A DNA stretch of 64,000 nt from Gemmatimonas sp. (GTDB lineage Bacteria > Gemmatimonadota > Gemmatimonadetes > Gemmatimonadales > Gemmatimonadaceae): contig OZ257156.1 of the NCBI GenBank assembly GCA_965279375.1, forward strand, positions 3,936,001 to 4,000,000, read 5' to 3'. This document shows, one piece after another, positions 1 through 52,270 of this stretch. Made by a program: the position numbers and the translations under genes. The notes beneath the pieces were generated by a model. That model was not told the origin of the DNA, searched no databases, and saw only the letters and a list, made by a program, of their open reading frames with translations. Position 1 is the first letter of the stretch, and every line of letters starts with the position of its first letter.

Positions 1-1445
<1,445 letters not shown>

Positions 1446-12105: not shown

Positions 12106-13178
12106 GGCTGGGCGAGCCCCGCGAGCTGACCGGATGCCACCAGCAACTCGGCGTTGAGAATCGAACCACCGGCGGCGCCACGCACGACATTGTGCGACAT
12201 CGCGACCAGTCGCAGGTCGAAGAGATTGTCGGCGCGTACGCGTCCGATCGTGACGGCCATGCCACCGCCGGCGTTCACGTCGCGGCGCGGCTGTGGGGCG
12301 TTGTCTTCATCGCGAATGATCAGCGCGGGCACCGGCGCCGACGGCAATCCGCGCACACCGGGGAAGCCTTCCCACGCACGCAGACAGGCGAGCGCTTCTT
12401 CCGGCGACGGCGCGCGCTCAAACGCCACGGAGAGACACACCGTGTGGCCATGCTCCACCGCGACTCGATTGGCATGCGCGCTGGTGACGATGTTCGCCGG
12501 CGTGATGCTCGAGCCGGCATAGCTCCCAAGCAACTTCACCAGCTCCGTCTCGATCTTGGGTTCTTCATCGCCGATGTACGGAATGACGTTGCCGAGGATG
12601 TCGAGTGATGGCACGCCAGGATAGCCAGCGCCGGAGACCGCCTGCATCGTGGTGGCGAACACCTTCTTCACGCCGAATGCTGCATGGAGCGGTGCCAGCG
12701 CCATCGCGATCACCGTCACCGCGCAATTGGCGTTGGTGACGATGCCGCCTGGCCAGCCACGCGCCGCACGCTGCGCCGCGAGCAGTGCCAGATGATCACC
12801 ATTCACCTCGGGGATCACGAGCGGCACATCCGACTCCATGCGGTAATTCTTGGCGTTGCTCAGCACCATGCGTCCCGCCTTCGCGAACGCGGCCTCCACC
12901 TCGCCGGCCACCGACGAATCAAGCGCCGAGAAGACGATCGGAGCCGTCACCTCGGACGGATCGCACAGCTTGACGCCGAGTGCGGCCACCTTGGCCGGCA
13001 TGGTGCCTTCGAGCCAGCGCGTGGCCTCACGATACGAGCGTCCGGCACTGCGCTCCGATGCCGCGACCTCTACCAGGTCAAACCAGGGATGCCCTTCGAG
13101 CAGGCGAATGAAGGCCTGCCCAACGGCACCAGTGGCGCCGAGCACTGCGACCGGCCAGCGAGGAGTCTGAATAGTCAT
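12102..13178 (-). CDS. asd: Aspartate-semialdehyde dehydrogenase (archaeal/eukaryote-like branch)
   Basis: VLGATGAVGQ, HPWF, AASERSAG, PLVIPEVN, NANC, QAVSGAGYPG, HNVVRGAAGG. Confidence 0.95.
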   Translation of the reverse strand: MTIQTPRWPVAVLGATGAVGQAFIRLLEGHPWFDLVEVAASERSAGRSYREATRWLEGTMPAKVAALGVKLCDPSEVTAPIVFSALDSSVAGEVEAAFAKAGRMVLSNAKNYRMESDVPLVIPEVNGDHLALLAAQRAARGWPGGIVTNANCAVTVIAMALAPLHAAFGVKKVFATTMQAVSGAGYPGVPSLDILGNVIPYIGDEEPKIETELVKLLGSYAGSSITPANIVTSAHANRVAVEHGHTVCLSVAFERAPSPEEALACLRAWEGFPGVRGLPSAPVPALIIRDEDNAPQPRRDVNAGGGMAVTIGRVRADNLFDLRLVAMSHNVVRGAAGGSILNAELLVASGQLAGLAQP

Positions 13179-14167
13179 GCGAGAAGAGAGCGGACGATGC
13201 GTTCGTAGACGCCGACCGACGCTTCCAGCTCGGCGATGTCGACGTACTCGATGGGTGTGTGTGCGACATGAATGGAGCCCGGCCCGAAGAGCAGCGGAGT
13301 GCCCCAGCGGTCGAGCAACGGGATGTCGCTCGTGTAGGCGACGGGTTCGACCTCAAAGCCGTCGATCACATGAAAATGCTGCGCCGGAATGTGCGAACCC
13401 CACACCAATTCGGCCCGCTTGTCGGCCCACGCCTCGAACGCGGCCTTGACCGGTGCGACATCTCCGACGAGACGGATCATGAGCTCAGCTTCAGCCAAGC
13501 CCGGCACGATGTTGGCCTCGGTACCCGCGCGAAACACGCCGATGTTGTACGTGGTCGCGCCGAGCACGGGGTCGACGGGCAACGAAAGCGTACGCAGTTC
13601 GGGCAGCAGATCGAGCAGCGGTTCGAGTGCGCTGGAACCGAGATGCGCGTATGCGGAATGCGCCTCGCGCCCGCGCACGCGCACGATCAACCGCTGCGCA
13701 CCCTTTCCGCCTGAGGCCAGCTTACTCTCGGTCGGCTCGCCATTCACGAGCCACTTGCTGGTGGCCGGCAGGCGATTGGCCGCGCGGGCACCGGGGGATC
13801 CCTTTTCTTCACCGACCACGAACAGCAGATCGACGCGATCCTCGCCGGCATCCGCCAGCCGCTGCGCCGCGATCATCATCGCCGCCGCGATCCCCTTGGC
13901 GTCGCAGGCGCCACGCCCGTACAAACGATCGCCGTCGAGAGTGGGCGCCACATAGGGCGGGACGGTGTCCAGGTGCGTGGAGAGCGTGACGCCTCCGCCG
14001 CGGCGCGCGGCCCAGACGTTCGATCGTCCGGGCTCCACTTCCTGAAGCGTGACATTCCATCCGCGCGCGACAAGCCAGCGCGCGACGAAATCCACCGCGT
14101 CCCGCTCGCGGCCGGTGGTGGATTCGAGAGACAACAGTTCGGTGGCGAGGGCGACGACGTCAGACAT
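13175..14167 (-). CDS. M20 family metallo-amidohydrolase (ArgE/DapE-like; probably succinyl-DAP desuccinylase given context)
   Basis: THLDTV, GRGACDAKG, VGEE, GEPT, GPGSIHVAH; heads the dap operon. Confidence 0.85.
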   Translation of the reverse strand: MSDVVALATELLSLESTTGRERDAVDFVARWLVARGWNVTLQEVEPGRSNVWAARRGGGVTLSTHLDTVPPYVAPTLDGDRLYGRGACDAKGIAAAMMIAAQRLADAGEDRVDLLFVVGEEKGSPGARAANRLPATSKWLVNGEPTESKLASGGKGAQRLIVRVRGREAHSAYAHLGSSALEPLLDLLPELRTLSLPVDPVLGATTYNIGVFRAGTEANIVPGLAEAELMIRLVGDVAPVKAAFEAWADKRAELVWGSHIPAQHFHVIDGFEVEPVAYTSDIPLLDRWGTPLLFGPGSIHVAHTPIEYVDIAELEASVGVYERIVRSLLA

Positions 14168-14228
14168 CCGGCAAAGATAAGGCCCGAATGACGATGGCGC
14201 GCCCCCGCAATGCTACCGAACGCGCCCG

Positions 14229-17200
14229 CTACACAGTGATCGCCAGCCCTCGGTAGATCCGGGCGCGATAGCGGCTGTCCTCAGGCTCCGGCAGAGGCGC
14301 GGTGGCGAGCAACACCGCATGGGCGAATCGCTCCTGTTCCTCCGCCTGCTCCGCCGCATCGCGCGGCTCCTCCGAGCGCACCCGACGCGTGAGATTGATC
14401 TGGTTCACCGGCACGTTGTGCACCAGACGTTCGTTCTCCACGCCGAGCGTGGCCGTGAGGGCATGCAGCGTGGTTTTGACGAAGTTGGCCAAGGCGAACT
14501 CCGCGTGCGTCGGCCGCACCGGCACATCAGGCGAGACGAGCACCAGTCGCACATGGTCCATCAAGGAGACCTTCCGCGCGACACGGAAATGGTGCGTCAG
14601 ATGCGCCTCGACCAAGGCCGCGAATCCTGCCGCATCGAGCGCAGGGACTCCGTCCTCGTGGAGGATATGCGCGGGCAACGGAGTGAACGGCGTGGACACG
14701 ACAGCCGCGGGCGCACCGGCGACGGCGAGCGCCTGATCCATCCCGCCTTCCAGATCGTCGCCCACGACGATGTTCTCGATGCGATTGCTGTTGAGCACAA
14801 TGCGGAGCATCGACTGCACTTCCTTGGCCGCCTCGCTCGTGCGCGTCAGCAGGATGATCCGACCGACATCTCCCTGCTCGAGCGCCAGTCGCGCCGCGCG
14901 CGCCAGATGCGACGTGAGGTACTCGCCGATCAGCCAGATCGTCTGGCCCTTCATTTTGGCCAGACGCTCGGGCTTCGCGCGACCGAACAGTTCGCGCTCG
15001 GTGATGGTGCGTTCCTGATGCAGCCCGCCCGACGGCTGGAAGGTCTCGCCGCTAACGGCGCGGTCGGAGAGGAAAAGCACCGTCGCGAGTGCGACTTCCA
15101 CCTCAGTGGGCATGTTGCGCAGGTGGAGCATGCCGAGCACCCCCTGGCCGATCTTCTTCGCTTCGCCCAGGATCTCGTCACGCGAGAGAAAGGGATCGGG
15201 AGGCACCGGGAGCGCTTCGAGCCACGCGTCCCCAAAGCGCGCGCCGCGATCCGCCTCGCCGAGAAACCGTCCCGCCAGTCGCAAGCGCGCGACGAGGCGC
15301 GTCGCGATGGCGCGATGCATGAGAAAACGCCCTGACGATGCCGCGTCCTCTGTGGCGCGCCCTGCGCGCAACACCTTGTCGCAGAACGCGCGCACCGGTG
15401 CCGGGACGTCGGACGTCGCGGCGAGCACACCAGCGTCGTTGAGAGCCAACTGTTCGAGCAGCGTGCCGACGGCCGCACCCGCGCGCAGCGACTCCACCAC
15501 GGCCGCGTAGAGGCTGTTGAGGCGGCGATTCTCGAGGATGAGTCGCCCACGACGCTCGAACAGTCCCGGTTTGCCGCCGACGCCGCGCAGCCGGTCGCCG
15601 TCGACCGGCCCCGGCGCGATCGCGTTGACCTGAATTTCCGGCCCGACAAAGCGCGCGAGATTTTCCGTCAGCGCGCGCTGCCCCGCCTTGGAGACGGCGT
15701 AGTCCGCTCGATTGGGGTACGGCACGGCAACGTACTTCTCGCCACCGAAGTATGACGACACGTTGAGGATGTACCCGGTCCCCTGCCGCTTCATGATGGG
15801 CACGACCTTCTCGATCAGCGAGTAGTTGGACACGAGGTTGGCGTTGAGCGTCGCGCGCCACGCGTCCACCTCCATGTCCACCACCATCTGCTCCGCACCG
15901 GCCACGCCCGCGTTGTTGACGAGATAGTCGATGCGACCGAACGCACTGATCGTCGCGGCAACGGAGGCCGCCAACGATGCCTCGTCCGACACATCGATGT
16001 CCGGCAAAACGGCCACGCGATCGCGCGCTTCGTAGTAGCCGATGTCCTCCAGCTCGCGCACGATGGAGGCGCGCATCTCCTCCAGCTGATCGGCGCGGCG
16101 CGCCACCAGCATCACGCGCGCGCCGGCGATGGCGAGCAATCGTCCGAGCTGCCCGCCAATCCCCGCCGAGCCTCCGGTGATGAGCGCAACCTTGCCCAAG
16201 TGGAGTCCCATCAGCGACTCCATCCATCCGAAGATGGCACGCCGACTGCCCGTTGCTTCCACGATGGACACGGGCAGATAGAGATTCACCTGCCGAATGC
16301 GCCGGCGCGTGTAGAGCAAACGCGCCGCCTGCCCTGCGGCGAACGGCACATCTTCGGCGTCGCGATTGCCCCACCGAATGACCTGATTGGACCACTCGAC
16401 GAACGACCGACTCCCGGCCTTCTGCTGTTCGCCTGACTCGTCGCGCCACACACGACACAGCTCCTCCGTCGCCGCACGCAACACGTCGCCGTAGTTGTTG
16501 CCGTGTCCATCATCGCCATTGGAGAGAAAGACGACGCGCGGCGCCGTTCGCAGCGTGGCCGTCTCCCACATGCGCGTGAGGGCGCGCGCGAGTGCCATCA
16601 TCCCCACCAACTCGCCATCCACGAAGGTGTCCACATCGCCATCGGAGAGCGCGACGAACGGGCCGCGAAAACGCCAGGCGCCGTATGCCGGAAGGATGAT
16701 CGCGCTGTGCAGCGTCTCGCCCTCCGCGATGAGCTTGTCGAAGAACTCCTGCACCGTCGCCAAACGTGTGCGGTCGAGCAACGAGACGCTGATGCGCTGA
16801 TCGGCCGCGTCGATGCCCAATGCATCCACCGCCGCGCGCACTCCCTCTTCAGATCCCAACGTGAGCCGAACCTGCGCGCCACAGGTCGCCTGCACACGCG
16901 CGACGGCGAGCGCGTCGGTGACCTGATCGCCGGCTGCCACCAGCACGCGCACACCGGTGCCGTCCACGGTGCGCAACTCGGGGCGCGACACCCACGTGCT
17001 GCGCGATTCGGGGCGCACAGTCATACCGTGCGTCACTTCGAAATTGTGGCCGTTGATGGCCGCCGACTCTTCGCTGGCCAGAAACACGATGGTGTTGGCC
17101 ACATCGCTGATCGTTGGAAATCCCTTGCTCGGCGCTGGCTCCGGCGCTGAGGCGTCGCCCAGTGCCGCCGCCGCGGCCCGCGCCGCATCGACTGCGGGAT

Positions 17201-18017
17201 TGCGCGCGAGCGTCATCAAGCCGAGAAAGTCTCCCGCAGTCGTGCCACTCTCCGCCTTGCGCAGCGCGTCCATGGCGGCGAACACGGTACGAATGCGCGG
17301 TGATTCGATGGGGCCCGGGAAGACGGTATTGACGCGAATGCCACGAGCGCCAAGCTCACCCGAGAGCGCGCGCGAGAAAGCGTTGAGCGCGGCCTTGGGG
17401 ACCACGTACGCTGCGCGCCCGTAGTACTGCGTGCGCGAGAAGATCGTGGACACGTTGATGACGGACGCGCCAGCATGCAGATGGGGCGCCACCGCACGCA
17501 CGAGATTCCATGACAAGCCGAGCAGATTGCGCGCCGCCGCACCGACCGTCTCGACCTCGTTGATGCCGCCTGCACGCAACGTCTCGAGATCTTCCGGCAA
17601 CAGCGGCAAGTCCTGCAGGCGACACTTGGGTCCCGCTGTGCCAGCGTTGTTCACGAGGACGTCGATCTTGCCGACCTTTTTCATCAAGTCAGCGACGGCC
17701 ACGCGCACCTGCCCCGGTTCGGATGCATCCATGGGCAGCGTGATGATGCGCGACGCGGCGGCATGCGTGGACTCGCGCAGCGCGGTCTTCGCGCTTTCGA
17801 GCTTCTTGCGATCGCGACCGGACATCACCACCGTGGCGCCTTCCATCAGGAATCGACGCGTGACCTCGGTACCGATGTTACCGGCAGCGCCGGTGATCAG
17901 CGCCACCTTGCCGGCGAGGCGACCGCGCGCCGCGCGACGTCGCTCCTTGGGCGCCCCCCCCTCGACGTGTTCTTCGGTGCGCGCGTCGTGCGTCGTCTCG
18001 CGAGTGGTGTCGCTCAT
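14229..18017 (-). CDS. mcr: Bifunctional malonyl-CoA reductase (Chloroflexus type, 3-hydroxypropionate forming)
   Basis: About 1260 aa with tandem SDR domains: GRLAGKVALITGAAGNIG...STIFSRTQYYGRAAYVVPKAA...FPGPIES.RIRTVF; LHLGKVALITGGSAGIGGQ...YPNRADYAVSKAGQRA; C-terminus RIYRGLAITV. These match the C. aurantiacus Mcr layout as I recall it. True start is ATG 18017. Confidence 0.93.
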   Translation of the reverse strand: MSDTTRETTHDARTEEHVEGGAPKERRRAARGRLAGKVALITGAAGNIGTEVTRRFLMEGATVVMSGRDRKKLESAKTALRESTHAAASRIITLPMDASEPGQVRVAVADLMKKVGKIDVLVNNAGTAGPKCRLQDLPLLPEDLETLRAGGINEVETVGAAARNLLGLSWNLVRAVAPHLHAGASVINVSTIFSRTQYYGRAAYVVPKAALNAFSRALSGELGARGIRVNTVFPGPIESPRIRTVFAAMDALRKAESGTTAGDFLGLMTLARNPAVDAARAAAAALGDASAPEPAPSKGFPTISDVANTIVFLASEESAAINGHNFEVTHGMTVRPESRSTWVSRPELRTVDGTGVRVLVAAGDQVTDALAVARVQATCGAQVRLTLGSEEGVRAAVDALGIDAADQRISVSLLDRTRLATVQEFFDKLIAEGETLHSAIILPAYGAWRFRGPFVALSDGDVDTFVDGELVGMMALARALTRMWETATLRTAPRVVFLSNGDDGHGNNYGDVLRAATEELCRVWRDESGEQQKAGSRSFVEWSNQVIRWGNRDAEDVPFAAGQAARLLYTRRRIRQVNLYLPVSIVEATGSRRAIFGWMESLMGLHLGKVALITGGSAGIGGQLGRLLAIAGARVMLVARRADQLEEMRASIVRELEDIGYYEARDRVAVLPDIDVSDEASLAASVAATISAFGRIDYLVNNAGVAGAEQMVVDMEVDAWRATLNANLVSNYSLIEKVVPIMKRQGTGYILNVSSYFGGEKYVAVPYPNRADYAVSKAGQRALTENLARFVGPEIQVNAIAPGPVDGDRLRGVGGKPGLFERRGRLILENRRLNSLYAAVVESLRAGAAVGTLLEQLALNDAGVLAATSDVPAPVRAFCDKVLRAGRATEDAASSGRFLMHRAIATRLVARLRLAGRFLGEADRGARFGDAWLEALPVPPDPFLSRDEILGEAKKIGQGVLGMLHLRNMPTEVEVALATVLFLSDRAVSGETFQPSGGLHQERTITERELFGRAKPERLAKMKGQTIWLIGEYLTSHLARAARLALEQGDVGRIILLTRTSEAAKEVQSMLRIVLNSNRIENIVVGDDLEGGMDQALAVAGAPAAVVSTPFTPLPAHILHEDGVPALDAAGFAALVEAHLTHHFRVARKVSLMDHVRLVLVSPDVPVRPTHAEFALANFVKTTLHALTATLGVENERLVHNVPVNQINLTRRVRSEEPRDAAEQAEEQERFAHAVLLATAPLPEPEDSRYRARIYRGLAITV

Positions 18018-21000
18018 GACTGAATCTCCGGCACATTTCCCATTGCGGCCCACGCTTCGTAGAGTTGAACCGCTGAGCGCAGCCCAAGCGTGGGAAGCGC
18101 GTGATTGACGACGTATGTAGCCCCGGCGTGGCGATTGTCCCACATCGCCTGATGCGCCTCGGGAAGATCCGACCACGGCACAACGGTGGGCGTTGTCACT
18201 TCGAGCAGCCCGGCATCCACCATCTCGTTCATGCGCGTGACTTCGTACGCATTGCACAAGTGTGTACCCAGAATGCGCGCGGTCGGCATCAGAATGCGCC
18301 GCTGTCGCGTCCACACCTGCGGCGCGTAGAAGCTGTAGCGATGTCCGCGCATCGACTCGAAGTACACCACACGTCCCGTGAACGGCTGCACGAGTGAGGT
18401 GGAGACGGCCAGTGCATCGTGTCGCGCGCGTTCGATGATGAGGTCCGGCGCGCCGCGTGGGTTGTCCGCTGAACGCAGAATGCGTCCAACAGCACTGCCG
18501 AACGGCTTGATCGTCTTCTCCTGGAACGCACGCACCGCTTCGCGGAACGCCGCCGAATCGCGTCGCACATCGGGAAGCGATGGCATCGTGTCGGGCCACT
18601 CGAACTCGCCGCCGCTGCGCCGCAACAGCTCCTCGATGCTCAGCACGCCGCGCACGGCATCGCCGAACCCCAACGACTGTACGAACTCGCGCTGTGCATC
18701 CGTTCGCGCCGCCACACAACAGCGCGCGCCGCGCGCCGAGGCCGCCTCGATCGCTTCGAGACCGGCATCGTCCACCAAGTCGCCTGCGCCGTGTCCAGCG
18801 CCGTAGAACAAGAGCACCGCTTCGCCACTCCGCAATTCCGCGCGGCGAAGCATCTCCGACGGAGCAACCGCGCCAGCCTTGCCGGCAAAGGTGAAGTGGT
18901 ATCCCGACGACGCGCCGTAAAACGTCAGTGCGCCACCATCGGCCAACAGTTGGAACGACCGCGGAAATGCCAGCTCGCCAGCGTGCGACACGACGTAGTC
19001 CGCGAGCCGACCTTGATGCTGCGCGCGGAACGCATCGAGCAACGGCTCACCCTGCGCTTCCCAATTGGCAATCGCCTCTGCGCCGTCAGGCACCGTCGTG
19101 AAGCAATCGCGGATGGATGCGTCGCGACGATTGATCGCCCCACGCGCGCCGTGCTGACGCACCACGTCTGCGCGCTCCTCCGACGAAACCATTCCGGTCA
19201 CTTCACACCCGTGACGAGCGGCGCTCTTGAGCGCTTCGAGACCTGTTCCGGTCGCCGCGCCCTCAACGAACATCGTTCGTCCGGACTCGAGCTTGAGCGT
19301 GGTGAACAGCGCGCGCACGATCGTGCCCAAATTCAGGATGTATGACCCTGCCGACTCCAGCGTCAGATCCTGTGGCACCGGATGCAACTGCGGAGCCTGC
19401 ACGGCCACAAACTGCTGATGACTGCCGGTGCGCGACTCGTAGCCTTGAATGCGGAAGTCGGCCGACATCGGATCGCGTGCGGCAAAGGGCGACAGCAGCT
19501 CGCTCTGCCCAGAGTAGATCGCCACGAGGTCGCCGACACGCAGTCGCCCTTCCGACTTGGCCTCACTGCCCAACGACGCGACGAGACCAATCCCGCCCGA
19601 ACCGGTTACCTGCCAATCCTGATCGTGGTTGTCGAATGGCGACACGGGGATGCCCGTGATCGCCCAGATGTCGTTGAAGTTCACTTCGGACGCCAGCACG
19701 TAGACGAGCGCCTCGTTGGGCCCCACCTCATCCACTGGCACGATCAACTCGCGCTCGGCGACGCGCGGCTCGCCATGCATCGGCGCGCCCGTCTCCGCGT
19801 CACGCGCCACGCCTTGTCCAAACTGAAAGCGCGGAATCGGTGTGAACCCCGGAAAGAACGGCGCTCCGACCGGAAGCAAGTCGCCGCTAGCCATCAGCTC
19901 AGCGCGACGCGCCGCATCGAAAGGTTCACGCCGCCGGGTGGCGAGTGGTGCGCTGCGTCGATCGAAGAACGCCTTGATGCCGCGCTTCCCGCCATCCGGA
20001 TCGATCACCGCCTCGGCGAACAGGCGCGCTTCACGAGCGAGCCCTGCGTCCAAACCCTGGCTCCAGCCTGTTCGTACCGCATCCAACACACGCGACGCTG
20101 CCGCTCTGCGCCCTGCGCCCGCCGCTTGCATGAGCAGACGCTGCACGGGCGCGAGCGAGAGCATCGACTCGACATCGATGTGTCCCGGACGTTCCCACGC
20201 CGCGCGACGTTCCCGCACCAGCCTGAAATGTCGCGCGAGCTCGCTGTGATCGTCCTGCACAAACGCGCGCGCCAGCGCCGATGCACGTGAGACGACGTCG
20301 TCGCTGCCGCTGACCAACGCGTCCACAATGCCCAGTGCGAGCGCGTCCTCAGCCGCTACCTGCCGACCGCCGAGGATGACTTCCATGGCGGCGATGAACC
20401 CTTCGTTGCCGTCGCGATCAGCGAGCAGGCGCGTGAGGCGCTGAGTGCCGCCGTACCCCGGCAACAGATTGAGACGGATCTCCGGCTGCCCGAAGACCGC
20501 CGTTGGCTCGGCGATGCGATAGTGGCAGGCGAGGGCGAACTCGAGCCCTCCGCCCAGCGCGACGCCATTGATTGCCGAGATACAAGGCTTGGGCATCCGC
20601 TCGATCATGCGAAACGCGAGGTGCGCTACGTTGGGCAGCGGCATCGCGTCTTCGAGCGTGTGCATCTCGTCGAGCAGCTGACGGATGTCCGCACCGGCCA
20701 CGAACGACGACGTGCCACTGCCAGTGAAGATCACCGCGCGGACGTCGTCCTGTCGCGAGAGATGCTCCACCACGGTGCACAGCTCGTCGAGTGCGCGCTC
20801 GTTCAGCGCGTTGACCGGCGCATTGGTGACCGTAACGACAGCGATGCGCGCGCCGACGTGCACCGTGTGGTAGTGCACACGGAAGTAGCGCCAGAACGAC
20901 AGGATCTGTTGCGCTTCGCCGATGCGCTGCAGTGCGCGCCACGCGTCGATGACCTTCTGCAGTGCGGGAATCGACTCGGGATTGCGGAGCGTTGAGACGT

Positions 21001-23473
21001 CGCCGAGTGGCTGCTGTTCCACCAGCGCGCGCACCATGCGGCGCACGTACTTGCCGCTGCGCGTCTCGGGAAACTGTGGGACTTCGAGGAACTCTTCGGG
21101 CACCGCGACCGCACCCTTCTCCTGACGGACGAGTTCCGTCAGGCGACGGCGATCATCCATCGTGATGCGCCGCCCGGGAGCCGGCGTCACGAACGCGAGC
21201 GGCGTCAGTCCCTTCTCGCGGTGCGGTGCGCCAATGACGATGACGTTGCCAACAGGAGAGTCGGGGTTGATCTGCTTGTCACGCAGGATCGCGCCTTCGA
21301 TCTCCTCTGTCCCCATGCGATGCCCGGAGACGTTGATGACATCATCGCTCCGCCCGTGCAGCGAGAAGCTGCCATCGGCATGGCGAATGGCCACATCGCC
21401 CTGGGTGTAGGCGTACGTGCCGCGCCAACGTGTCCAGTACGTGGACGCGTAGCGCGCGAAGTCGCCGCGCCAGTTGCCCGGAACCGTCGTGCCGTCGACG
21501 ACGAACGCTGCGGCGTCTCCCCAGATGGTGCGCGCGAGATACGGATACGGCGCCGCGATGACGATGTCACCCCTTTCTCCATCGGCCGCGGAACGCCACG
21601 GCAATCGTCCGTCGGCATCCGGCTCACCGTCGGCGACCCACACGTCCCCTGCAATCCAGGGTAAGGGATACGTATGTGCGTCCGGGCGCAGCGGGAAATC
21701 TTCGCTCCCGTAGAAGTGCGTCCAGACAATGCCGCCGTGCTCCGTGGCCCAGTACGAATTGATGTACTGCGGCGTCATGAGTCCCATCCCGAATTCCTGA
21801 ACCGTTGGCGACACCGGTTCAGCGCAGAAGGTGGCCACGCGCAACGACGACAGATCGTACCGCCGCACGTCCTCTGCATTCTGCGGATCGGACATCACGG
21901 CCTTGAGGAACGTGACGCCCGCCTTGAAGATCGTCACGCCGTACCGTTCGATGATCGACGCGAATCGGCCAGCGCTCGGGAATACCGGCGCGCCTTCGGC
22001 CAGCACCGATGTCACGCGTGTCGTGAGTGCGGCGCTGAGCATGTAGCTCTGTCCCGTGATCCACCCCGGATCGGCCACCACGTACAGCACGTCGCCCGGA
22101 CGCGCGTCGAACGAGACACGCATCGTGTTGGCGATGCCTGCGACGAACCCGCCATGCACGTGCACGACGCCCTTGGGCTTGCCCGTGGAGCCCGAGGTGT
22201 AAATGAAGAACAGCGGGAACTCTGCGTCGACCGCAACCGGTGGCACCACCGTCCAAATGGCGCGCACACATGCAACGTCGTCCAAGGCACGGAGCGCATC
22301 GATCGACGACACCGCTTCGCCCGCCGCCTGCATGCCCGCGAGCAGTTCCGCATCGGCGTCGGCGAGCAGCTCATGCGCCCACACGTCGCGTTCTGCGCGC
22401 CATGGCACGTCCGCTTGCCCGGTGTGACGCACCACCACGACACGTTCCACACGACTCTGCACCGCCACGAGCGCACGGGCGACAGTGGTGCGCGCGCGAC
22501 TCGCCGTGGCAGCATCGAGCGAACCGGATTCGCTGAGAGCGGCCAAGGCGCGGCCGATGCCACGCATCACGTCGCTGCGTTCGACGGTGATCTCACCCTT
22601 GATGGCTCGCTCCGCCTCGTCGATCAGGCGTTCCGCCACTGCCGACGTCACATCCAACCCGGCAACGGCGTCCGCAACCGTTGCGAGCGCCTGCTCCACG
22701 GCGATGTAGCGATCGAGCGCAGGATCGGTGTACGCGGCCTTGAACGGGATGACCTGCGCGTTGCGGTAGCCACCGTCTGCGGTAATGACGACGCGCGCGC
22801 CTGCGTCGTACACGCGATCGGCGAGGGTCTTGTCGGAGAATCCGCCGAAGACCGGCGTGTAGACGATGCCAAGGCGCTTGGCCGCTTCCGTCCACGCCAC
22901 CTGCTCCGGAATATTGGGCAAGTTGAGCGCGATGCGGTCGCCGGTGCGCAGTCCGAGGCGTCGCAGCGCGACGGCACAGCGCGCCACGTCGACGAGCAGC
23001 GCCTTGCGACTGATCGGATACGCCGACACCGGACCGCCGCGTCCGCCATCGCGCGACTGATCCCACCGGTCACCCTCTACGAGGAACGCTGTCTCGTCGC
23101 CGTGCCCGGCAAGCACATGGCGATCGACCTCGTTGAAGCACGCGTTCGTTCGCGCGCCCGAGAACCAGCGGTAGAACGGGGCGTCATCGTCATCGAAGGC
23201 ACGCGCCCACGGTCGATACGAGGCTGGATGCACGCCGGCCCGCGCCGCGCCGGAGGTCGCATCAAATCCTGTCCACGCCGAATCGTCGAGCGTCAGCCAA
23301 GCGTTCGTGGAGACATCAAACCAGTGCAACTCACGTGCGGCAATGTCGCCGTGAAACGCGCCCGGATCCGCGACGGCGCGATCGCGCATCGCCAACCAGT
23401 CCTGGCGCGTACGCACGGGATTGACCAGCGGTTCTCGTGCTGCCGTCGGCGATGGGACGGACGTGTGGGTCAT
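18014..23473 (-). CDS. pcs: Trifunctional propionyl-CoA synthase (3-HP-CoA ligase / dehydratase / acryloyl-CoA reductase)
   Basis: About 1820 aa. AMP-ligase domain (YTSGSTGKPKG, YWATEHG, GRSDDVINVSGHR, PETRSGK) with the KGEITVERSDVMRG helical insert; crotonase domain (AGADI, GGGLE, QPEI.L..GYGGTQRL); MDR reductase domain (SEVNFNDIWAITG, EGAATGTG, GTHLCNA). Confidence 0.95.
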   Translation of the reverse strand: MTHTSVPSPTAAREPLVNPVRTRQDWLAMRDRAVADPGAFHGDIAARELHWFDVSTNAWLTLDDSAWTGFDATSGAARAGVHPASYRPWARAFDDDDAPFYRWFSGARTNACFNEVDRHVLAGHGDETAFLVEGDRWDQSRDGGRGGPVSAYPISRKALLVDVARCAVALRRLGLRTGDRIALNLPNIPEQVAWTEAAKRLGIVYTPVFGGFSDKTLADRVYDAGARVVITADGGYRNAQVIPFKAAYTDPALDRYIAVEQALATVADAVAGLDVTSAVAERLIDEAERAIKGEITVERSDVMRGIGRALAALSESGSLDAATASRARTTVARALVAVQSRVERVVVVRHTGQADVPWRAERDVWAHELLADADAELLAGMQAAGEAVSSIDALRALDDVACVRAIWTVVPPVAVDAEFPLFFIYTSGSTGKPKGVVHVHGGFVAGIANTMRVSFDARPGDVLYVVADPGWITGQSYMLSAALTTRVTSVLAEGAPVFPSAGRFASIIERYGVTIFKAGVTFLKAVMSDPQNAEDVRRYDLSSLRVATFCAEPVSPTVQEFGMGLMTPQYINSYWATEHGGIVWTHFYGSEDFPLRPDAHTYPLPWIAGDVWVADGEPDADGRLPWRSAADGERGDIVIAAPYPYLARTIWGDAAAFVVDGTTVPGNWRGDFARYASTYWTRWRGTYAYTQGDVAIRHADGSFSLHGRSDDVINVSGHRMGTEEIEGAILRDKQINPDSPVGNVIVIGAPHREKGLTPLAFVTPAPGRRITMDDRRRLTELVRQEKGAVAVPEEFLEVPQFPETRSGKYVRRMVRALVEQQPLGDVSTLRNPESIPALQKVIDAWRALQRIGEAQQILSFWRYFRVHYHTVHVGARIAVVTVTNAPVNALNERALDELCTVVEHLSRQDDVRAVIFTGSGTSSFVAGADIRQLLDEMHTLEDAMPLPNVAHLAFRMIERMPKPCISAINGVALGGGLEFALACHYRIAEPTAVFGQPEIRLNLLPGYGGTQRLTRLLADRDGNEGFIAAMEVILGGRQVAAEDALALGIVDALVSGSDDVVSRASALARAFVQDDHSELARHFRLVRERRAAWERPGHIDVESMLSLAPVQRLLMQAAGAGRRAAASRVLDAVRTGWSQGLDAGLAREARLFAEAVIDPDGGKRGIKAFFDRRSAPLATRRREPFDAARRAELMASGDLLPVGAPFFPGFTPIPRFQFGQGVARDAETGAPMHGEPRVAERELIVPVDEVGPNEALVYVLASEVNFNDIWAITGIPVSPFDNHDQDWQVTGSGGIGLVASLGSEAKSEGRLRVGDLVAIYSGQSELLSPFAARDPMSADFRIQGYESRTGSHQQFVAVQAPQLHPVPQDLTLESAGSYILNLGTIVRALFTTLKLESGRTMFVEGAATGTGLEALKSAARHGCEVTGMVSSEERADVVRQHGARGAINRRDASIRDCFTTVPDGAEAIANWEAQGEPLLDAFRAQHQGRLADYVVSHAGELAFPRSFQLLADGGALTFYGASSGYHFTFAGKAGAVAPSEMLRRAELRSGEAVLLFYGAGHGAGDLVDDAGLEAIEAASARGARCCVAARTDAQREFVQSLGFGDAVRGVLSIEELLRRSGGEFEWPDTMPSLPDVRRDSAAFREAVRAFQEKTIKPFGSAVGRILRSADNPRGAPDLIIERARHDALAVSTSLVQPFTGRVVYFESMRGHRYSFYAPQVWTRQRRILMPTARILGTHLCNAYEVTRMNEMVDAGLLEVTTPTVVPWSDLPEAHQAMWDNRHAGATYVVNHALPTLGLRSAVQLYEAWAAMGNVPEIQS

Positions 23474-23655
23474 GAACGATTCTCGTGTACACAAGGACCG
23501 CCACGACTATCACCCCGACAGTCAATTCTGTCAGACGTGAACGAACTCTCGATGTCGTAGCGCTATGAACACAGCCACGTGCAGGCGGAAACTCGTCACA
23601 CAAAACGTCGCAATTGCGTCACGCGCTGGACGCGTGTTCGCCACGCGTGGTGCCG

Positions 23656-23877
23656 TCAGCTGATTTCCTTCATCAACAGCGCACTCAACGCGTCGTCACT
23701 CATCGAATCCGCCCACTCGGGCGCGAGCAGTGCAATGACGCGCTCGGCACCTGAGTTGCACTCCACTGCGACGACTTCTCTTCCCAACGCCTGCGCCGCG
23801 GCGACATGCTCCACCGGAACCTCAGGAAGCTCGAGGCAAATCCACGTCACACCACGCGTATCACGAACCGTCCGCAT
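23656..23877 (-). CDS. Small hypothetical protein (73 aa)
   Basis: MRTVRDTRGVTWICLELPE...ECNSGAERV...APEWADSMSDDALSALL; protein-like composition; TACAAT -10-like hexamer upstream at 23942-23947. Confidence 0.65.
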   Translation of the reverse strand: MRTVRDTRGVTWICLELPEVPVEHVAAAQALGREVVAVECNSGAERVIALLAPEWADSMSDDALSALLMKEIS

Positions 23878-24109
23878 CGCATCATCCCCGAGAAAGAACG
23901 TCCCGCGCAACGGCATGCCGCGGGAGTGTGAGCACGAGCGGATTGTACGTTCGCCGCGGGCAGAACAGAAGGGTGCGCCCCGGTAACCGCGGCGCAGCGA
24001 GCGAGACCGTGACGTGAGCTTCGTTCGGCGAGTGCGCAACAGCCACGGTCGTGGACACCGTTCGGCGTGGTGCCGAGTCGCGTCAGATCCGATTTGAACA
24101 CAGTGCCTC

Positions 24110-26196: not shown

Positions 26197-27981
26197 TCAG
26201 GCGCGCAGTCCCAACGCGTGCGCCGCGTACCAGAGCGTGTGCGCCAGAAGGCCAGCGAGTGCTGCATCGCCACCGTTCCCGGTCGCTCGACCGGTCTCGT
26301 CGACAAACTCCGCCGCCACGCCATTGTCGAGCGGCGCGCGTCGCAGCCAGGCCAGCACCTCCGTGGCGTCGGGACCGAGCAGGCGCGCCACCTGTGGCAG
26401 CAACGCGCCTCCGTCATCTCCGATCGCGCGCACCGACCTGCGATAGAGGGAGTCCTCGCGCTCCAGCGCCTCGTACAGCGGCAACCAGAGAATCGATCCG
26501 ACCGCATCATCGTCAAGTGAGGAGCCCCCCACGAGATCGATCGCCGACGCGAGACGCGCCTTGCCGCCGCGATCCACGGCGAAATGGCGTCGTAGTGCCG
26601 CGCGCACCGCAGCGGGATCCTCAACGGCCGCCGCCGCCTCTTCGTCGAGCGTGCGTTTGAACACGTCGAGCGCGAGCGCAACCACGGCGTTCCCATGCAA
26701 TGTGAACGGCATCGGCGCAGGGGCGCCCGACGGCATCACTTCGGTGGAGTAGAGGGGAATGCGCTCGTCTCGGCGGGCCGCGATGTCATCCGACGCGAGA
26801 TACAACGTGTCAGCGACCACCGGTTCCTCGACGATCTGCTCGTCGTTGGAATCGCGGATGTAGCGATCGGTGGCGATGGCAAACGCGGCCGGCCCCTCGA
26901 TGTTGAATCCGGGTTGGAAGAGCGTGCCGTCGAGATAGTGCACCCCCTGCCCCGGCGCGTAGCCGTGCAGTTCGCACGCACGCACGAGCAACTCGCGCGC
27001 AAGTCCGGTGTCGGCCAACTGGACCGCTGGCAACGTCCACATGAGCGCTTCCCAGTCGCGCACCGTGCACCCCGCCGAGTGCCAAGGCGCCCGCGACCGC
27101 ACGAGGTAGTAGTGCGCGTCGTCGAGGGCGCGCCCCACGCCATAGAAATACGCGAAGAGCAGGTTGCGGTTGAGCAGGCGATCCATGCCATCGCTCCCCG
27201 TCGTCTGCTCCATGGTGGAGAGCGCTTCGCGCGTGGCGGTCAGCAGTGCGCGCCAGCCGCGGCGACGAAGCACCGCCACCGTGGCCTGAGCACCGTCTCG
27301 CTCCGGCCCCACGGCCAGATAGAACGCCACCTGCACGGAGCCATTGGCCGGTGCGATGACATCACGCCGAATCGCGAACTCACGAGGCGCGCGCGACGCC
27401 TCCGCCGGTGCCTCGAGCCGCGCGGGACCGTCGCTACCAATCGCGAGTGCAGCGAGTCCGGGAATCGCGGCGCCTTCCAGCAGCAGCACGTCATCCAGCC
27501 CAATGCTGACCTGGTGCTCGTCGTCGAACGGGCGCGCGGTACGCACCCGCTGCTGGCGATGGCCGAGCGTCCCTTCGAGTGCGATTTCCAGCGAGACATC
27601 GCGCCCGCTGCGGTTCTCGACCGCCAGCGTGTACACGGCGCCCGCCATGTCTGCATCGCGTCCGTACGGCGCGAAGACCGTCCCGCGGACCACCAGGTCG
27701 CCTACGGTGCACGTGAACGTAGGAAGCCACCCCACGGCCTGCTCCCACGCGATCCCTTCGGCGGCGAGCGTGGACACCACACCGTTCACCCGGAGTACCG
27801 GCACGCACAGCGGCGTTCCGACTGCCTGTTCGAACCCGGCCGCACCCGCGAACTCGATCGCCGCCCGGGCCCCGCGATGCAGAACCCCGACGCCGTGAAT
27901 GGCACCGTCAGCAGGGTTGATGCACGGAAGCGTGAGCCAATGATTGCCGGTGAGCTGCCAGGGAACGGACGGAATCTGCAC
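26197..27981 (-). CDS. Six-hairpin glycosidase-like protein (GH125-related), possibly degenerate
   Basis: NLLFAYFYGVGRALD...VRSRAP...EALMWTLPAVQLAD...ARELL...HYLDGTLFQPGF resembles metal-independent alpha-mannosidase-like proteins; start uncertain. Confidence 0.6.
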   Translation of the reverse strand: MQIPSVPWQLTGNHWLTLPCINPADGAIHGVGVLHRGARAAIEFAGAAGFEQAVGTPLCVPVLRVNGVVSTLAAEGIAWEQAVGWLPTFTCTVGDLVVRGTVFAPYGRDADMAGAVYTLAVENRSGRDVSLEIALEGTLGHRQQRVRTARPFDDEHQVSIGLDDVLLLEGAAIPGLAALAIGSDGPARLEAPAEASRAPREFAIRRDVIAPANGSVQVAFYLAVGPERDGAQATVAVLRRRGWRALLTATREALSTMEQTTGSDGMDRLLNRNLLFAYFYGVGRALDDAHYYLVRSRAPWHSAGCTVRDWEALMWTLPAVQLADTGLARELLVRACELHGYAPGQGVHYLDGTLFQPGFNIEGPAAFAIATDRYIRDSNDEQIVEEPVVADTLYLASDDIAARRDERIPLYSTEVMPSGAPAPMPFTLHGNAVVALALDVFKRTLDEEAAAAVEDPAAVRAALRRHFAVDRGGKARLASAIDLVGGSSLDDDAVGSILWLPLYEALEREDSLYRRSVRAIGDDGGALLPQVARLLGPDATEVLAWLRRAPLDNGVAAEFVDETGRATGNGGDAALAGLLAHTLWYAAHALGLRA

Positions 27982-28146: not shown

Positions 28147-29838
28147 ATGGCTTCATACATCGCATCGCGCGTCCTTCGTGGAAGCCTCGTCGTGGGCCGC
28201 GCGCTGGTCGCAGTCGCAACGCTTGCCAGCATCGCCAGCGCGCAGGCAGTTGCCGGAACCGGCGACGATGCAATCCCGATTCCCAAGGGCGGCTATCGAT
28301 TCCGGCTCGGCGGACTGTGGAACGACTACACCAACGTCTACGCTCCTGACGCCAATGGATCGCTCGTCTCGCGACCGCTGCTGGCCGGTCTAGCCACCGC
28401 GAGCCTCGGCACCAATCGGCTTCCCCAGCTCGCCAACTACGAGTCGGCGATTCGTTCGCTGAGCGCAGTCGCGAACTACAACCTCTCGCTTGGCACTTTC
28501 GAAGCGATCGGCGATGTCCGACAGAGCTCAGTCCCGTTGGCCCTAGATGTCGGTATCACGCGTCGCGTCTCGATCGGCATCGTCGTTCCCTACGTGGAGT
28601 CGCGCAATCGTTCGCAGCTCGTGCTGAATCGTGCGGGAACGAATGCCACCGCTGGACAGAACCCCGCTTACTCCGCCGCCGGCGCCACCGCGGCGCGCAC
28701 CATCAACGGCACCGTGCTTCGGCAGCTCGCCACGGCGTTCAACCAGCTGAGCGCCGAAGTCACCCGCTGCGCCGTCGCTACGGCAACCAACTGCGACGCC
28801 ATTCGAGCCAATCCCGCGGGCGCGCAGACGCTGCTGCAAAGGGCCCGGGCGGCGCAGACCGCCATCGCGCTCGTGTACGGCGACAGCACCCGCGCGGGCT
28901 CTCCGCTGGTGCCCATCACCGGCTCCGCTGTGCAAACGGCGATCGTCGCCAATCTCACGTCGATCGCTAGCGCGTTTCAGGGCTTCGGCGTGGGCAGTCT
29001 CCAAGCGGTCGCGCCCGCGTCTGCCAACGTCGTCTACGGTCCCGGCAGTCTCGCCGCCATCGCACGCGACTCCGCCTTTGGCTTGGGCTACAGCGCGATC
29101 GGCAACACGCGTCGCGCCGGTATCGGTGACATCGATCTGACGGCCACGGCGTTGCTCCACGACACCTTTGGCGCCGATCAGTACAAGCGGCTCAACAGCA
29201 CCGGGCGCGCGTGGCGTACATCGCTAACCGCGGGTTTCCGCTTTGGCACGGCCGGTGCGGATCGCGTGGAAGATCCGCTCGACGTACCCATCGGCGACGG
29301 CGCCAGCGCCATCCTGCTGCGCAGCACGACCGATCTGATCCTCAACAAGTTCTTCTGGATCAGTGGGACTGTCCGCGTTGTGCGTCCGCTGGGCGACGAC
29401 GTCGCCGTTGCCGTACCCGTGCTCACCGACACCTCGCTCTTCTTTTCGTATCGCACCGCCGTCGCGCAGCGCTCGCTCGGCCAGCGCACCGAAATCGAAA
29501 TCGCGCCGCGTCTGATGTTCGGACAGTTCTTCGGACTCTCGGGCGGCTACCTGCTGCGTCGTGTCGGCGAGGACAAGCTCGAGACATTGGTGCCGCCGAC
29601 GACACAGTCCTCAACCGCGTCCGGCGGTGAGTTTCTCACGCCCGCGCGCACGGTCCAGGCGCTGACGATCGCGGCCTCGTTCTCCTCGCTCGCCAGCTAC
29701 ATGCGCCGTGGTGCGAAATGGCCGCTGGAGCTGACCTTCACGCACACCGCACCGTTCGCGGCATCGGGCGGCATCTCGCCAATCTTCTCGATGGACCGAC
29801 TCGAGATGCGGATCTATCGCGGGTTTCCGCGGCGCTGA
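28147..29838 (+). CDS. Secreted / putative outer-membrane beta-barrel protein
   Basis: Signal peptide ending ASAQA; amphipathic strands (VGITRRVSIGIVVPYV, GIGDIDLTAT, EIEIAPR, RLEMRIY) with a long helical insert. Confidence 0.7.
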   Translation: MASYIASRVLRGSLVVGRALVAVATLASIASAQAVAGTGDDAIPIPKGGYRFRLGGLWNDYTNVYAPDANGSLVSRPLLAGLATASLGTNRLPQLANYESAIRSLSAVANYNLSLGTFEAIGDVRQSSVPLALDVGITRRVSIGIVVPYVESRNRSQLVLNRAGTNATAGQNPAYSAAGATAARTINGTVLRQLATAFNQLSAEVTRCAVATATNCDAIRANPAGAQTLLQRARAAQTAIALVYGDSTRAGSPLVPITGSAVQTAIVANLTSIASAFQGFGVGSLQAVAPASANVVYGPGSLAAIARDSAFGLGYSAIGNTRRAGIGDIDLTATALLHDTFGADQYKRLNSTGRAWRTSLTAGFRFGTAGADRVEDPLDVPIGDGASAILLRSTTDLILNKFFWISGTVRVVRPLGDDVAVAVPVLTDTSLFFSYRTAVAQRSLGQRTEIEIAPRLMFGQFFGLSGGYLLRRVGEDKLETLVPPTTQSSTASGGEFLTPARTVQALTIAASFSSLASYMRRGAKWPLELTFTHTAPFAASGGISPIFSMDRLEMRIYRGFPRR

Positions 29839-47252: not shown

Positions 47253-47891
47253 GTGAAACGTATCGCCGACTCCACCGTTCGTCGCCTGTCGATGTACCTC
47301 CGCTACCTCGAGGACCTCGACACCCGCGGCACCAAAACCGCCTCAAGCGACGAGCTCGCTCACCTCTGCGGCACCACGCCGGCCCAGGTGCGCAAAGACC
47401 TGTCGTTCTTCGGCTCCTTCGGAAAGCGCGGACTCGGCTATCCGGTCCACGAGCTCACCGCGCACATTCGCGAAATCCTCGGGCTCGAGCGCGAATGGAA
47501 GGTCGTCATCGTCGGCGCCGGTAAGATCGGTGCGGCGCTCGCCAACTATCGCGGCTTCAACCAGCGCGGTTTCCAGGTGGTCGGCGTCTACGACAACAGC
47601 CCCGACAAGATCGGCAAACCGTGGGGCGCGTCGATCGTACGTGACATGGCCGACCTCGAGCGCGACGTCGAGCAAGAGGGCGCGCTGATCGCCGTCCTCG
47701 CCATCCCCTCCGACGACGCCCAGCACGTGGTCGACGCAGTCATCGGCGCCGGCATTCGCGCGATCCTCAACTTCGCGCCCACGCAGATCACCGTGCCGCC
47801 GCACGTCTCGCTCAAGTCGGTGAACATGGCGATGGAGCTGGAAGGGCTCTCGTTCGCCCTCACCAACGCCGGCAACAAGGGCGCGGCCTAA
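47253..47891 (+). CDS. rex: Redox-sensing transcriptional repressor Rex
   Basis: TVRRLSMYLR, SSDELA, AQVRKDLSFFGSFGKRGLGY, VGAGKIGAAL, AILNFAP. Confidence 0.97.
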   Translation: MKRIADSTVRRLSMYLRYLEDLDTRGTKTASSDELAHLCGTTPAQVRKDLSFFGSFGKRGLGYPVHELTAHIREILGLEREWKVVIVGAGKIGAALANYRGFNQRGFQVVGVYDNSPDKIGKPWGASIVRDMADLERDVEQEGALIAVLAIPSDDAQHVVDAVIGAGIRAILNFAPTQITVPPHVSLKSVNMAMELEGLSFALTNAGNKGAA

Positions 47892-51244: not shown

Positions 51245-52270
51245 TCAAGCAAGGGTTCCTGCGGAGGTCGCGAGGCCTGACGAGCCGACCTGGAGCGCGG
51301 TGATCGCCGCAGCATGTACAATGTCATCCGACGTAGCCCCACGGGACAAGTCGGAGCAGGGCCGCGCCAGTCCCTGCAAGACGGGACCGATCGCCGTCGC
51401 CCCAGAGAGGCGCTGCACCAGCTTGTAGGCGATGTTTCCCGCATCGAGCGAGGGGAACACGAGCACATTGGCGTGTCCCGCTGCGGGCTCGCCCGGTACT
51501 TTGCGTCGCGCGATCTCCGGAATCAGTGCCGCGTCGGCCTGCACTTCGCCGCAGACCTCGAGCGACGGCGCCTCCGCGCGCACGATCGCGACCGCATCGC
51601 GCACGCGACTGATCGAGGGCCCGTCGGCGCTGCCGGCCGTGCTGTACGACAGGAACGCGACGCGCGGCTCGTCGCCGACAATGCGCTTGCGGTCGATCGC
51701 CGCCGCGAGCGCGATATCCGCGAGTTGGCGAGAGGTGGGATCCGGGATGACGGCGCAGTCTGTGAAGGTCAGCACCGATTCCGCGCCATCACCCTTGGCA
51801 GGAAAGACGAGGTAGAACGACGACGACACGGAGCGTACGCCTGGCGCCGCCCCGACGGTCCAGAGGGCCGCGCGAATGACATCCGCCGTTCGATGGACCG
51901 CCCCTGCCACGCAACCATCCGCCTCTCCCATCGCCACGAGCGCGTCGGCGAAGTAGAGCGGATCCCGTGCCAGCCGTTCCGCGTCCTCGCGGCCGAGGCC
52001 TCGACCGCCGCGTTGCTGCAGGAGGTGTGCGACCACGCGCGGTGTGCGCGGATCGAGCAGTGGATCGAGCAGTTCCACGGTGTGCGGCGGTACCACGCCA
52101 GTGGCGGCATCCGAGCGGCGAACGAGCACCGGTCGCACGGAGCCACGCGCCGTGAGCGCGATGACGGCTTCGACGACGCGAAAGTCCGTTGCTTCCGGGA
52201 ACAGAATGGTGCGCGGGATGAGTGCGGCGCGCGCATGCAGCGAGTCGAGAAAGGCGACGGATTGCGACAC
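51245..52270 (-). CDS. pta: Phosphate acetyltransferase (short form)
   Basis: [63 protein letters not shown]. Confidence 0.93.

Follow-up and report, generated by a model that had tools for sequence, protein, structure and literature searches.

In Chloroflexus aurantiacus and Roseiflexus castenholzii, the 3-hydroxypropionate bi-cycle (3-HPB) comprises Mcr, Pcs, SmtAB, Mcl, Mch, Mct, Meh, propionyl-CoA carboxylase (Pcc), methylmalonyl-CoA epimerase, and methylmalonyl-CoA mutase, the same set for which the genome described here carries candidates. The pcs and mcr genes of C. aurantiacus have distant locus tags (Caur_0613 and Caur_2614), and the genome paper reports no RuBisCO (PMC3150298). For the phylum Gemmatimonadota, Garritano et al. 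(2022; PMC9802188) describe the whole bi-cycle gene set "for the first time," namely from two metagenome-assembled genomes (MAGs) of the Gemmatimonadaceae, 3300015204_6 and 3300015196_3, with the glyoxylate genes in Chloroflexus order and with identities to the C. aurantiacus proteins of 78% (Mcl), 73% (Mch), 70% (Mct), 59% (Meh), 51% (Mcr), and 60% (Pcs). A 2026 preprint (10.64898/2026.09.02.748891) records 3-HPB markers among Gemmatimonadota from freshwater and asks for their validation, and PMC13702023 (2026) states that the pathway predicts MAGs of aerobic anoxygenic phototrophs (AAPs) on the Greenland ice sheet; going by the two sources, the role of 3-hydroxypropionate genes in such organisms is still an open question. 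Here we analyze a window of 64,000 nucleotides (positions 3936001 to 4000000 of the chromosome, G000:C1; plain positions below are those of the window) from the complete, single-contig genome of a Gemmatimonas sp. (5,309,734 bases, 65% G+C), and within it the adjacent genes pcs and mcr, encoding a propionyl-CoA synthase and a malonyl-CoA reductase. The pair probably represents a translationally coupled operon forming one of two modules of a complete bi-cycle gene set, which would serve mainly as a light-supported mixotrophic route.

As claimed in a preliminary description of the window, pcs and mcr are two intact large open reading frames (ORFs) overlapping by ATGA; both are free of stop codons and lie on the minus strand (Table 1). 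Pcs displays, in this order, the Pfam domains ACAS_N/AMP-binding/AMP-binding_C (residues 86 to 808), ECH_1 (residues 875 to 1075), and ADH_N/ADH_zinc_N (residues 1251 to 1784), and residues 23 to 1811 align with residues 26 to 1842 of PDB entry 6eqo (2496 bits), which we take to be the Pcs of Erythrobacter sp. NAP1. This three-domain order and the end-to-end match bear out the earlier call of a trifunctional enzyme. Pfam detects two strong short-chain dehydrogenase/reductase (SDR) regions in Mcr, residues 33 to 1262 of which align with residues 6 to 1229 of 8hi4 (1214 bits); the match to 8hjw (1166 bits) likewise covers nearly the whole length. Both entries are full-length malonyl-CoA reductases, the solved Chloroflexales entries being, as we assume, those of C. 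aurantiacus and R. castenholzii. The two halves of Mcr score 793 bits against 6k8s and 532 bits against 6k8v, where 6k8s to 6k8w presumably represent the Mcr of Porphyrobacter dokdonensis. Exactly two YxxxK motifs are present, along with the glycine-rich dinucleotide motifs TGAAGNIG at residue 42 and TGGSAGIG at residue 614, and in an alignment of 57 rows the four catalytic Tyr and Lys columns are kept in 57, 57, 57, and 56 rows. Consequently, the description of a Chloroflexus-type malonyl-CoA reductase with both catalytic motifs holds as well. No NCBIfam model reached its cut-off across the whole of Pcs or Mcr, as expected from the fact that both are fusions. By full-length match, domain order, and catalytic motifs, the pair is a genuine Pcs and Mcr with predicted activities, and two ORFs of such length with such family assignments cannot have arisen by chance; from the ATGA overlap, we infer that their translation is coupled. 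More than 1,000 relatives of Mcr were found in a large protein collection, the best 120 of which are 61 to 90% identical. The named ones among these 120 are mostly gemmatimonad, together with JGI entries called malonyl-CoA reductase, and the best named matches are from Gemmatimonas groenlandica (77%) and a Gemmatimonadota MAG (83%), in line with the Gemmatimonadota-like origin suggested earlier.

In agreement with the preliminary description, the 64-kb window contains no mcl, mch, mct, meh, or smtAB gene. That description had made full autotrophy conditional on the presence of the glyoxylate half elsewhere, and this half was found, at the gene level only, on the same chromosome about 689 kb from pcs-mcr (G000:C1:3253974-3260902). 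Between 3.254 and 3.260 Mb, whole-genome family searches picked up one strong lyase of the HpcH/HpaI family together with a cluster of three family III CoA-transferases, and the module is laid out with meh divergent from minus-strand smtA-smtB-mct-mcl-mch, the smtAB-like pair being located directly upstream of mct. The candidate for meh emerged when the gap of 1 kb before the first transferase gene was compared with related loci in six frames: the opposite strand contains a frame that is conserved among them. Its product is 60% identical to the smtA neighbor in Ca. Viridilinea halotolerans and is present in all six gemmatimonad-labelled loci. The assignment as Meh follows from the match to the itaconyl-CoA hydratase 8khg, the conserved place, the Meh match of Garritano et al. 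given above, and the mesaconyl-C4-CoA hydratase activity that itaconyl-CoA hydratases also possess (PMC12290011). A 138-aa MaoC protein (G000:C1:4375565-4375981) was considered for this function and dropped, as it matches the hydratase part of NF006045, a family of bifunctional enoyl-CoA hydratases/phosphate acetyltransferases, and sits among fatty-acid genes. A search for Meh with RipB_Ich (NF038241) returned only the two halves of mch, and a second HpcH-family match (L078:232-1203) had no NCBIfam match. The dedicated gene set is complete at the level of candidates, and its eight genes are open and full length and keep their catalytic motifs, with no internal stops in the search outputs.

The onward route to succinyl-CoA, proposed in the preliminary description with pccB at the start of the window, has candidates in the genome. 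These are the pccB-like gene and the adjoining biotin carboxylase gene (Table 1), a methylmalonyl-CoA epimerase (TIGR03081, 129 bits; cut-off, 115), and a B12-dependent mutase split into N and C parts and accompanied by MeaB, with a second mutase-like gene in addition. The whole-genome search also revealed accA-like and accD-like carboxyltransferases. It detected no isocitrate lyase, no malate synthase, and no crotonyl-CoA carboxylase/reductase (Ccr) over cut-off; hence, neither the glyoxylate shunt nor the ethylmalonyl-CoA pathway is recognizable, and the bi-cycle is the only recognizable route from acetyl-CoA to C3 and C4 precursors. Note that a crotonyl-CoA-reductase-like/quinone-oxidoreductase-like gene is located at G000:C1:2346288-2347304 on the plus strand, with a second matched piece containing one in-frame TGA; this gene may be broken, or the match may be a six-frame artefact.

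In the proposed scheme, Mcr would reduce malonyl-CoA with NADPH via malonate semialdehyde to 3-hydroxypropionate, which Pcs would convert via its CoA ester and acrylyl-CoA to propionyl-CoA. Propionyl-CoA carboxylase, epimerase, and the B12-dependent mutase would join the two modules, and the glyoxylate module would regenerate acetyl-CoA and release glyoxylate, to be condensed with propionyl-CoA and converted to pyruvate. Used mixotrophically, the pathway would co-fix bicarbonate during the assimilation of acetyl-CoA, propionate, 3-hydroxypropionate, or glyoxylate, with excess NADPH being consumed in the process.

The distribution of the genes was followed in a family sample of 201 genomes, including the host, and a phylum sample of 301 genomes; as the sampled genomes are related rather than independent, the counts are descriptive and no statistical test was applied. 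Mcr is encoded in 16 of the 201 family genomes and pufLM in 25. Thirteen of the 16 Mcr-positive genomes carry pufLM, the three others being 85 to 94% complete; Mcr occurs in 3 of 176 pufLM-negative genomes, and 12 genomes possess pufLM without Mcr. In the phylum sample, Mcr was found in four genomes, all belonging to the Gemmatimonadaceae (3/69 others besides the host), and in none of 231 from eleven other families. The gene order is conserved among relatives: pcs is located directly upstream of mcr in 12/12 related loci (with the C-terminal parts of Pcs 67 to 75% identical), and the glyoxylate module has the same order in 6/6 gemmatimonad-labelled loci. In three genomes of another genus, pcs-mcr is followed by the same deacylase and asd genes as in the host.

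Several points weigh against the light-supported mixotrophic bi-cycle. Mct scores 687 bits with TIGR04253, under the cut-off of 725, and both the assignment of SmtAB and our taking the 282-aa protein as Meh are by homology and synteny only. Outside the host, Mcr is found in 0/4 species of the same genus in the family sample and in 2/13 in the phylum sample, and the pathway is dispensable in close kin. In a complete same-genus genome (L079:2537-3838), homologues of the deacylase gene and of the 86-aa ORF that flank pcs-mcr in the host lie about 100 bp apart without pcs-mcr, while in the host the same flanks enclose the 9.2-kb pair (window 13175-23916); this is a clean presence/absence difference that can be read as gain or as loss. 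Furthermore, the host possesses a Calvin-Benson-Bassham (CBB) operon (Table 1), which might in fact be how CO2 is fixed, and according to a 2024 survey (PMC11316326), no member of the phylum has had its autotrophy confirmed by physiology.

The genome contains pufL and pufM, and the host, a member of the Gemmatimonadaceae, is a phototroph based on bacteriochlorophyll whose reaction center is of the purple-bacterial type. The RuBisCO of the CBB operon is a form II enzyme of 459 residues (NF010002, 888 bits; cut-off, 489), the phosphoribulokinase matches NF011997 (501 bits; cut-off, 362), and the closest proteins are 88 to 91% identical, some being from Gemmatimonadetes-labelled MAGs. Form II RuBisCO over cut-off occurs in only two of the 201 family genomes, the host and one Mcr-negative genome. 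None of the other 15 Mcr-positive family genomes has a RuBisCO-family match at E <= 1e-30, among all 18 Mcr-positive genomes examined the host alone gave any such match, and form II RuBisCO is found in 0/9 further same-genus genomes tested. Conceivably, the bi-cycle and the Calvin-cycle core are both functional and divide the work, the former in mixotrophic assimilation of bicarbonate and the latter in CO2-based redox balancing or autotrophy. We regard this as doubtful; if true, the Gemmatimonadota would have in the host their first autotroph, or their first member with two such pathways.

Full autotrophy, in which the complete bi-cycle, powered by light and/or H2, would sustain net growth on bicarbonate and the host would be a photo- or lithoautotrophic gemmatimonad, is unlikely. 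Every dedicated bi-cycle gene has an intact candidate, pufLM is accompanied by a gene for the large subunit of a [NiFe]-hydrogenase (Table 1), for which a search of four sampled genomes of the genus gave no match, and autotrophy was predicted for the two family MAGs by Garritano et al. (PMC9802188). However, aerobic anoxygenic phototrophs count as photoheterotrophs, SoxB stays below its cut-off in the genome, and the survey cited above (PMC11316326) knows of no gemmatimonad shown to be autotrophic. The 2026 preprint (10.64898/2026.09.02.748891) adds that markers of photo- and chemoautotrophy are not enriched in 3-HPB-bearing Gemmatimonadota. Net fixation cannot be demonstrated from gene presence alone, and net autotrophy through the bi-cycle is therefore possible but unproven.

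It is more improbable still that the two modules work independently, with pcs-mcr, Pcc, epimerase, and mutase providing only a route from acetyl-CoA to succinyl-CoA or an electron sink, the default of the preliminary description, and the mct cluster separately handling glyoxylate, mesaconate, or itaconate-type C5 acids. The 689 kb between the modules would fit such a separation. In addition, Meh-like genes (35 to 46% identity) adjoin mct in many proteobacterial loci (L014, L023, L027, L028, L030-L034, L036, L037, and L044), and only one of ten named Mct-bearing genomes searched for Mcr was positive, namely Ca. Viridilinea; Mct and Meh thus have uses outside the bi-cycle. Within the family, however, Mct is encoded in 12 of the 201 genomes and all 12 are Mcr-positive, while the four Mcr-positive genomes lacking Mct are 74 to 90% complete. 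Both same-genus Mcr-positive genomes also carry Mct, and in a Gemmatimonas-labelled MAG (L019) the two modules are contiguous, in the order pcs-mcr-meh-smtAB-mct-mcl-mch. A third reading, that of a remnant in decay or silent and without a present role, as the patchy distribution of the genes within the genus might suggest, is hardly credible in view of the intactness of all eight genes and their G+C content, which for pcs-mcr resembles that of the rest of the window and chromosome.

An Mcr tree of 57 rows was built from the query, 13 translations from the loci, and 43 homologues; the latter were drawn from the 120 listed by taking each third one and all named ones (>1150 aa), with the other 77 left out. 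The query and the protein of G. groenlandica fall into one well-supported clade of 14 rows. Family genomes are scattered throughout the tree, with one protein from a betaproteobacterial-labelled MAG nested inside. As the single Chloroflexales outgroup (Ca. Viridilinea) has a long branch, the tree is silent on donor and direction. Identities to the Chloroflexales MAG (L007, L081) differ from gene to gene: the SmtA- and SmtB-like proteins reach 83% and 80%, values that refer to the corresponding neighbors of mct in the MAG and not to characterized SmtAB, followed by Mct with about 70%, Meh with 60%, and Mcr with only about 49 to 51%. Given this gap, the glyoxylate module and mcr may differ in their history of transfer.

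In the window, the neighbors of pcs-mcr are housekeeping genes. On the same strand, 61 bp beyond the 3' end of mcr, a gene for a DapE/ArgE-family deacylase is followed by asd, an aspartokinase gene, dapB, dapA, dapD, and aroA-cmk, and no terminator-like site was found between mcr and the deacylase gene. The 5' side of pcs is occupied by the 86-aa ORF and then by an RtcB-family gene on the opposite strand. The promoter scan before pcs gave one site, compared with 0.8 expected from shuffled sequences, i.e., chance level. Two large proteins of the window, with 594 (26197-27981, minus strand) and 563 residues (28147-29838, plus strand), have no Pfam or NCBIfam match; their same-genus homologues are 79% and 51% identical, respectively. 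A Rex-type redox-sensing regulator (Put_DNA-bind_N plus CoA_binding; 47253-47891, plus strand) and a phosphate acetyltransferase (51245-52270, minus strand) are encoded in the same window.

Table 1. Features of the pcs-mcr locus, the glyoxylate module, and related genes (plain positions refer to the window; G000:C1 is the host chromosome)
Feature	Position	Strand	Evidence or remark
pcs, trifunctional propionyl-CoA synthase, 1819 aa	18014-23473	-	Stop-free translation, Pfam order, PDB 6eqo
Pcs parts	Ligase ~21050-23218; enoyl-CoA hydratase ~20249-20851; reductase ~18122-19723	-	
mcr, bifunctional malonyl-CoA reductase, 1262 aa, four tandem SDR-like regions	14229-18017	-	Stop-free translation, PDB 8hi4/8hjw
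ATGA, ATG of mcr overlapping TGA of pcs	18014-18017	-	Reverse complement read directly
YVVPK, Mcr residues 204-208, Tyr/Lys of N-terminal, malonate-semialdehyde-reducing SDR	17394-17408	-	Y and K kept in 57/57 rows
YAVSK, Mcr residues 773-777, Tyr/Lys of C-terminal, malonyl-CoA-reducing SDR	15687-15701	-	Y kept in 57/57, K in 56/57 rows
First CoA-transferase (smtA-like), ~407-451 aa	Glyoxylate cluster	-	Family III; 83% identity to Chloroflexales MAG neighbor
Second CoA-transferase (smtB-like), 408 aa	Glyoxylate cluster	-	Family III; 80% identity to Chloroflexales MAG neighbor
mct, 406 aa	Glyoxylate cluster	-	PDB 7xkg/8apq "2-methylfumaryl-CoA isomerase," 649/642 bits, full length
mcl, 347 aa	Glyoxylate cluster	-	6kin/4l7z, 664/658 bits, full length, versus 196 for malyl-CoA lyase 4l9y
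mch, 360 aa	Glyoxylate cluster	-	4e3e, 583 bits; 8hgn "beta-methylmalyl-CoA dehydratase," 470 bits; full length
meh candidate, 282-aa double hot-dog protein	L001:15057-15905	+	8khg itaconyl-CoA hydratase, 225 bits
Sigma-70-like promoter match, 33 bp upstream of pcs start	23506-23534	-	Weak lead only
pccB-like carboxyltransferase, 514 aa, start inside window, end past left edge	3-1445	-	TIGR01117, 736-788 bits
Biotin carboxylase, next after pccB-like gene, outside window	L075:2357-3904	-	NF006367, 648 bits; cut-off, 597
Operon of form II RuBisCO, class 1 fructose-bisphosphatase, and phosphoribulokinase	G000:C1:608549-612022 (L002:6549-10022)	+	
[NiFe]-hydrogenase large subunit	G000:C1:1771158-1772588	+	PF00374, 192 and 69 bits in one 550-aa frame

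Among the known systems, the cassette of the AAP Proteobacteria Erythrobacter sp. NAP1 and Porphyrobacter dokdonensis resembles that of the host: in each case, pcs lies next to mcr in an aerobe that contains bacteriochlorophyll. Those bacteria are said (Zarzycki et al., 2009) to have only the pcs-mcr half of the pathway, whereas the host carries the complete glyoxylate module too. The proteins of the glyoxylate module match solved Chloroflexales proteins far better than other structures, and the order of the module equals that given for Roseiflexus and Chloroflexus in the supplement of Garritano et al. (PMC9802188). In contrast, pcs and mcr are adjacent and overlapping in the host but have distant locus tags in C. 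aurantiacus (PMC3150298), and the host is a gemmatimonad combining a purple-bacterial-type reaction center with a CBB operon, whereas no RuBisCO is reported from the genome of C. aurantiacus.

A precedent is provided by the MAGs of Garritano et al., which share with the host the family, the full gene set, and similar identities to C. aurantiacus. The preliminary description could not tell whether the locus had already been reported; since the pathway was described in these two MAGs in 2022 (PMC9802188), the host locus is not new in kind, and its pcs-mcr pair adds one more case to a module known from the Gemmatimonadaceae. What the host adds is the whole-genome context, i.e., an intact, complete dedicated set with no recognizable other acetate route and with a Calvin-cycle core and a hydrogenase alongside. 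In the open literature (subscription journals being outside the scope), we came across no gemmatimonad, whether in culture or with a complete genome, that was described as combining the bi-cycle with RuBisCO, and the parts of PMC9802188 available do not report form II RuBisCO and phosphoribulokinase, as present in the host, for the two MAGs. The earlier gemmatimonad reports consulted rest on incomplete MAGs, those of Garritano et al. being from soil and 87 to 90% complete, whereas the host genome is a complete single-contig chromosome, which allows firmer statements on the intactness, absences, and positions of the genes.

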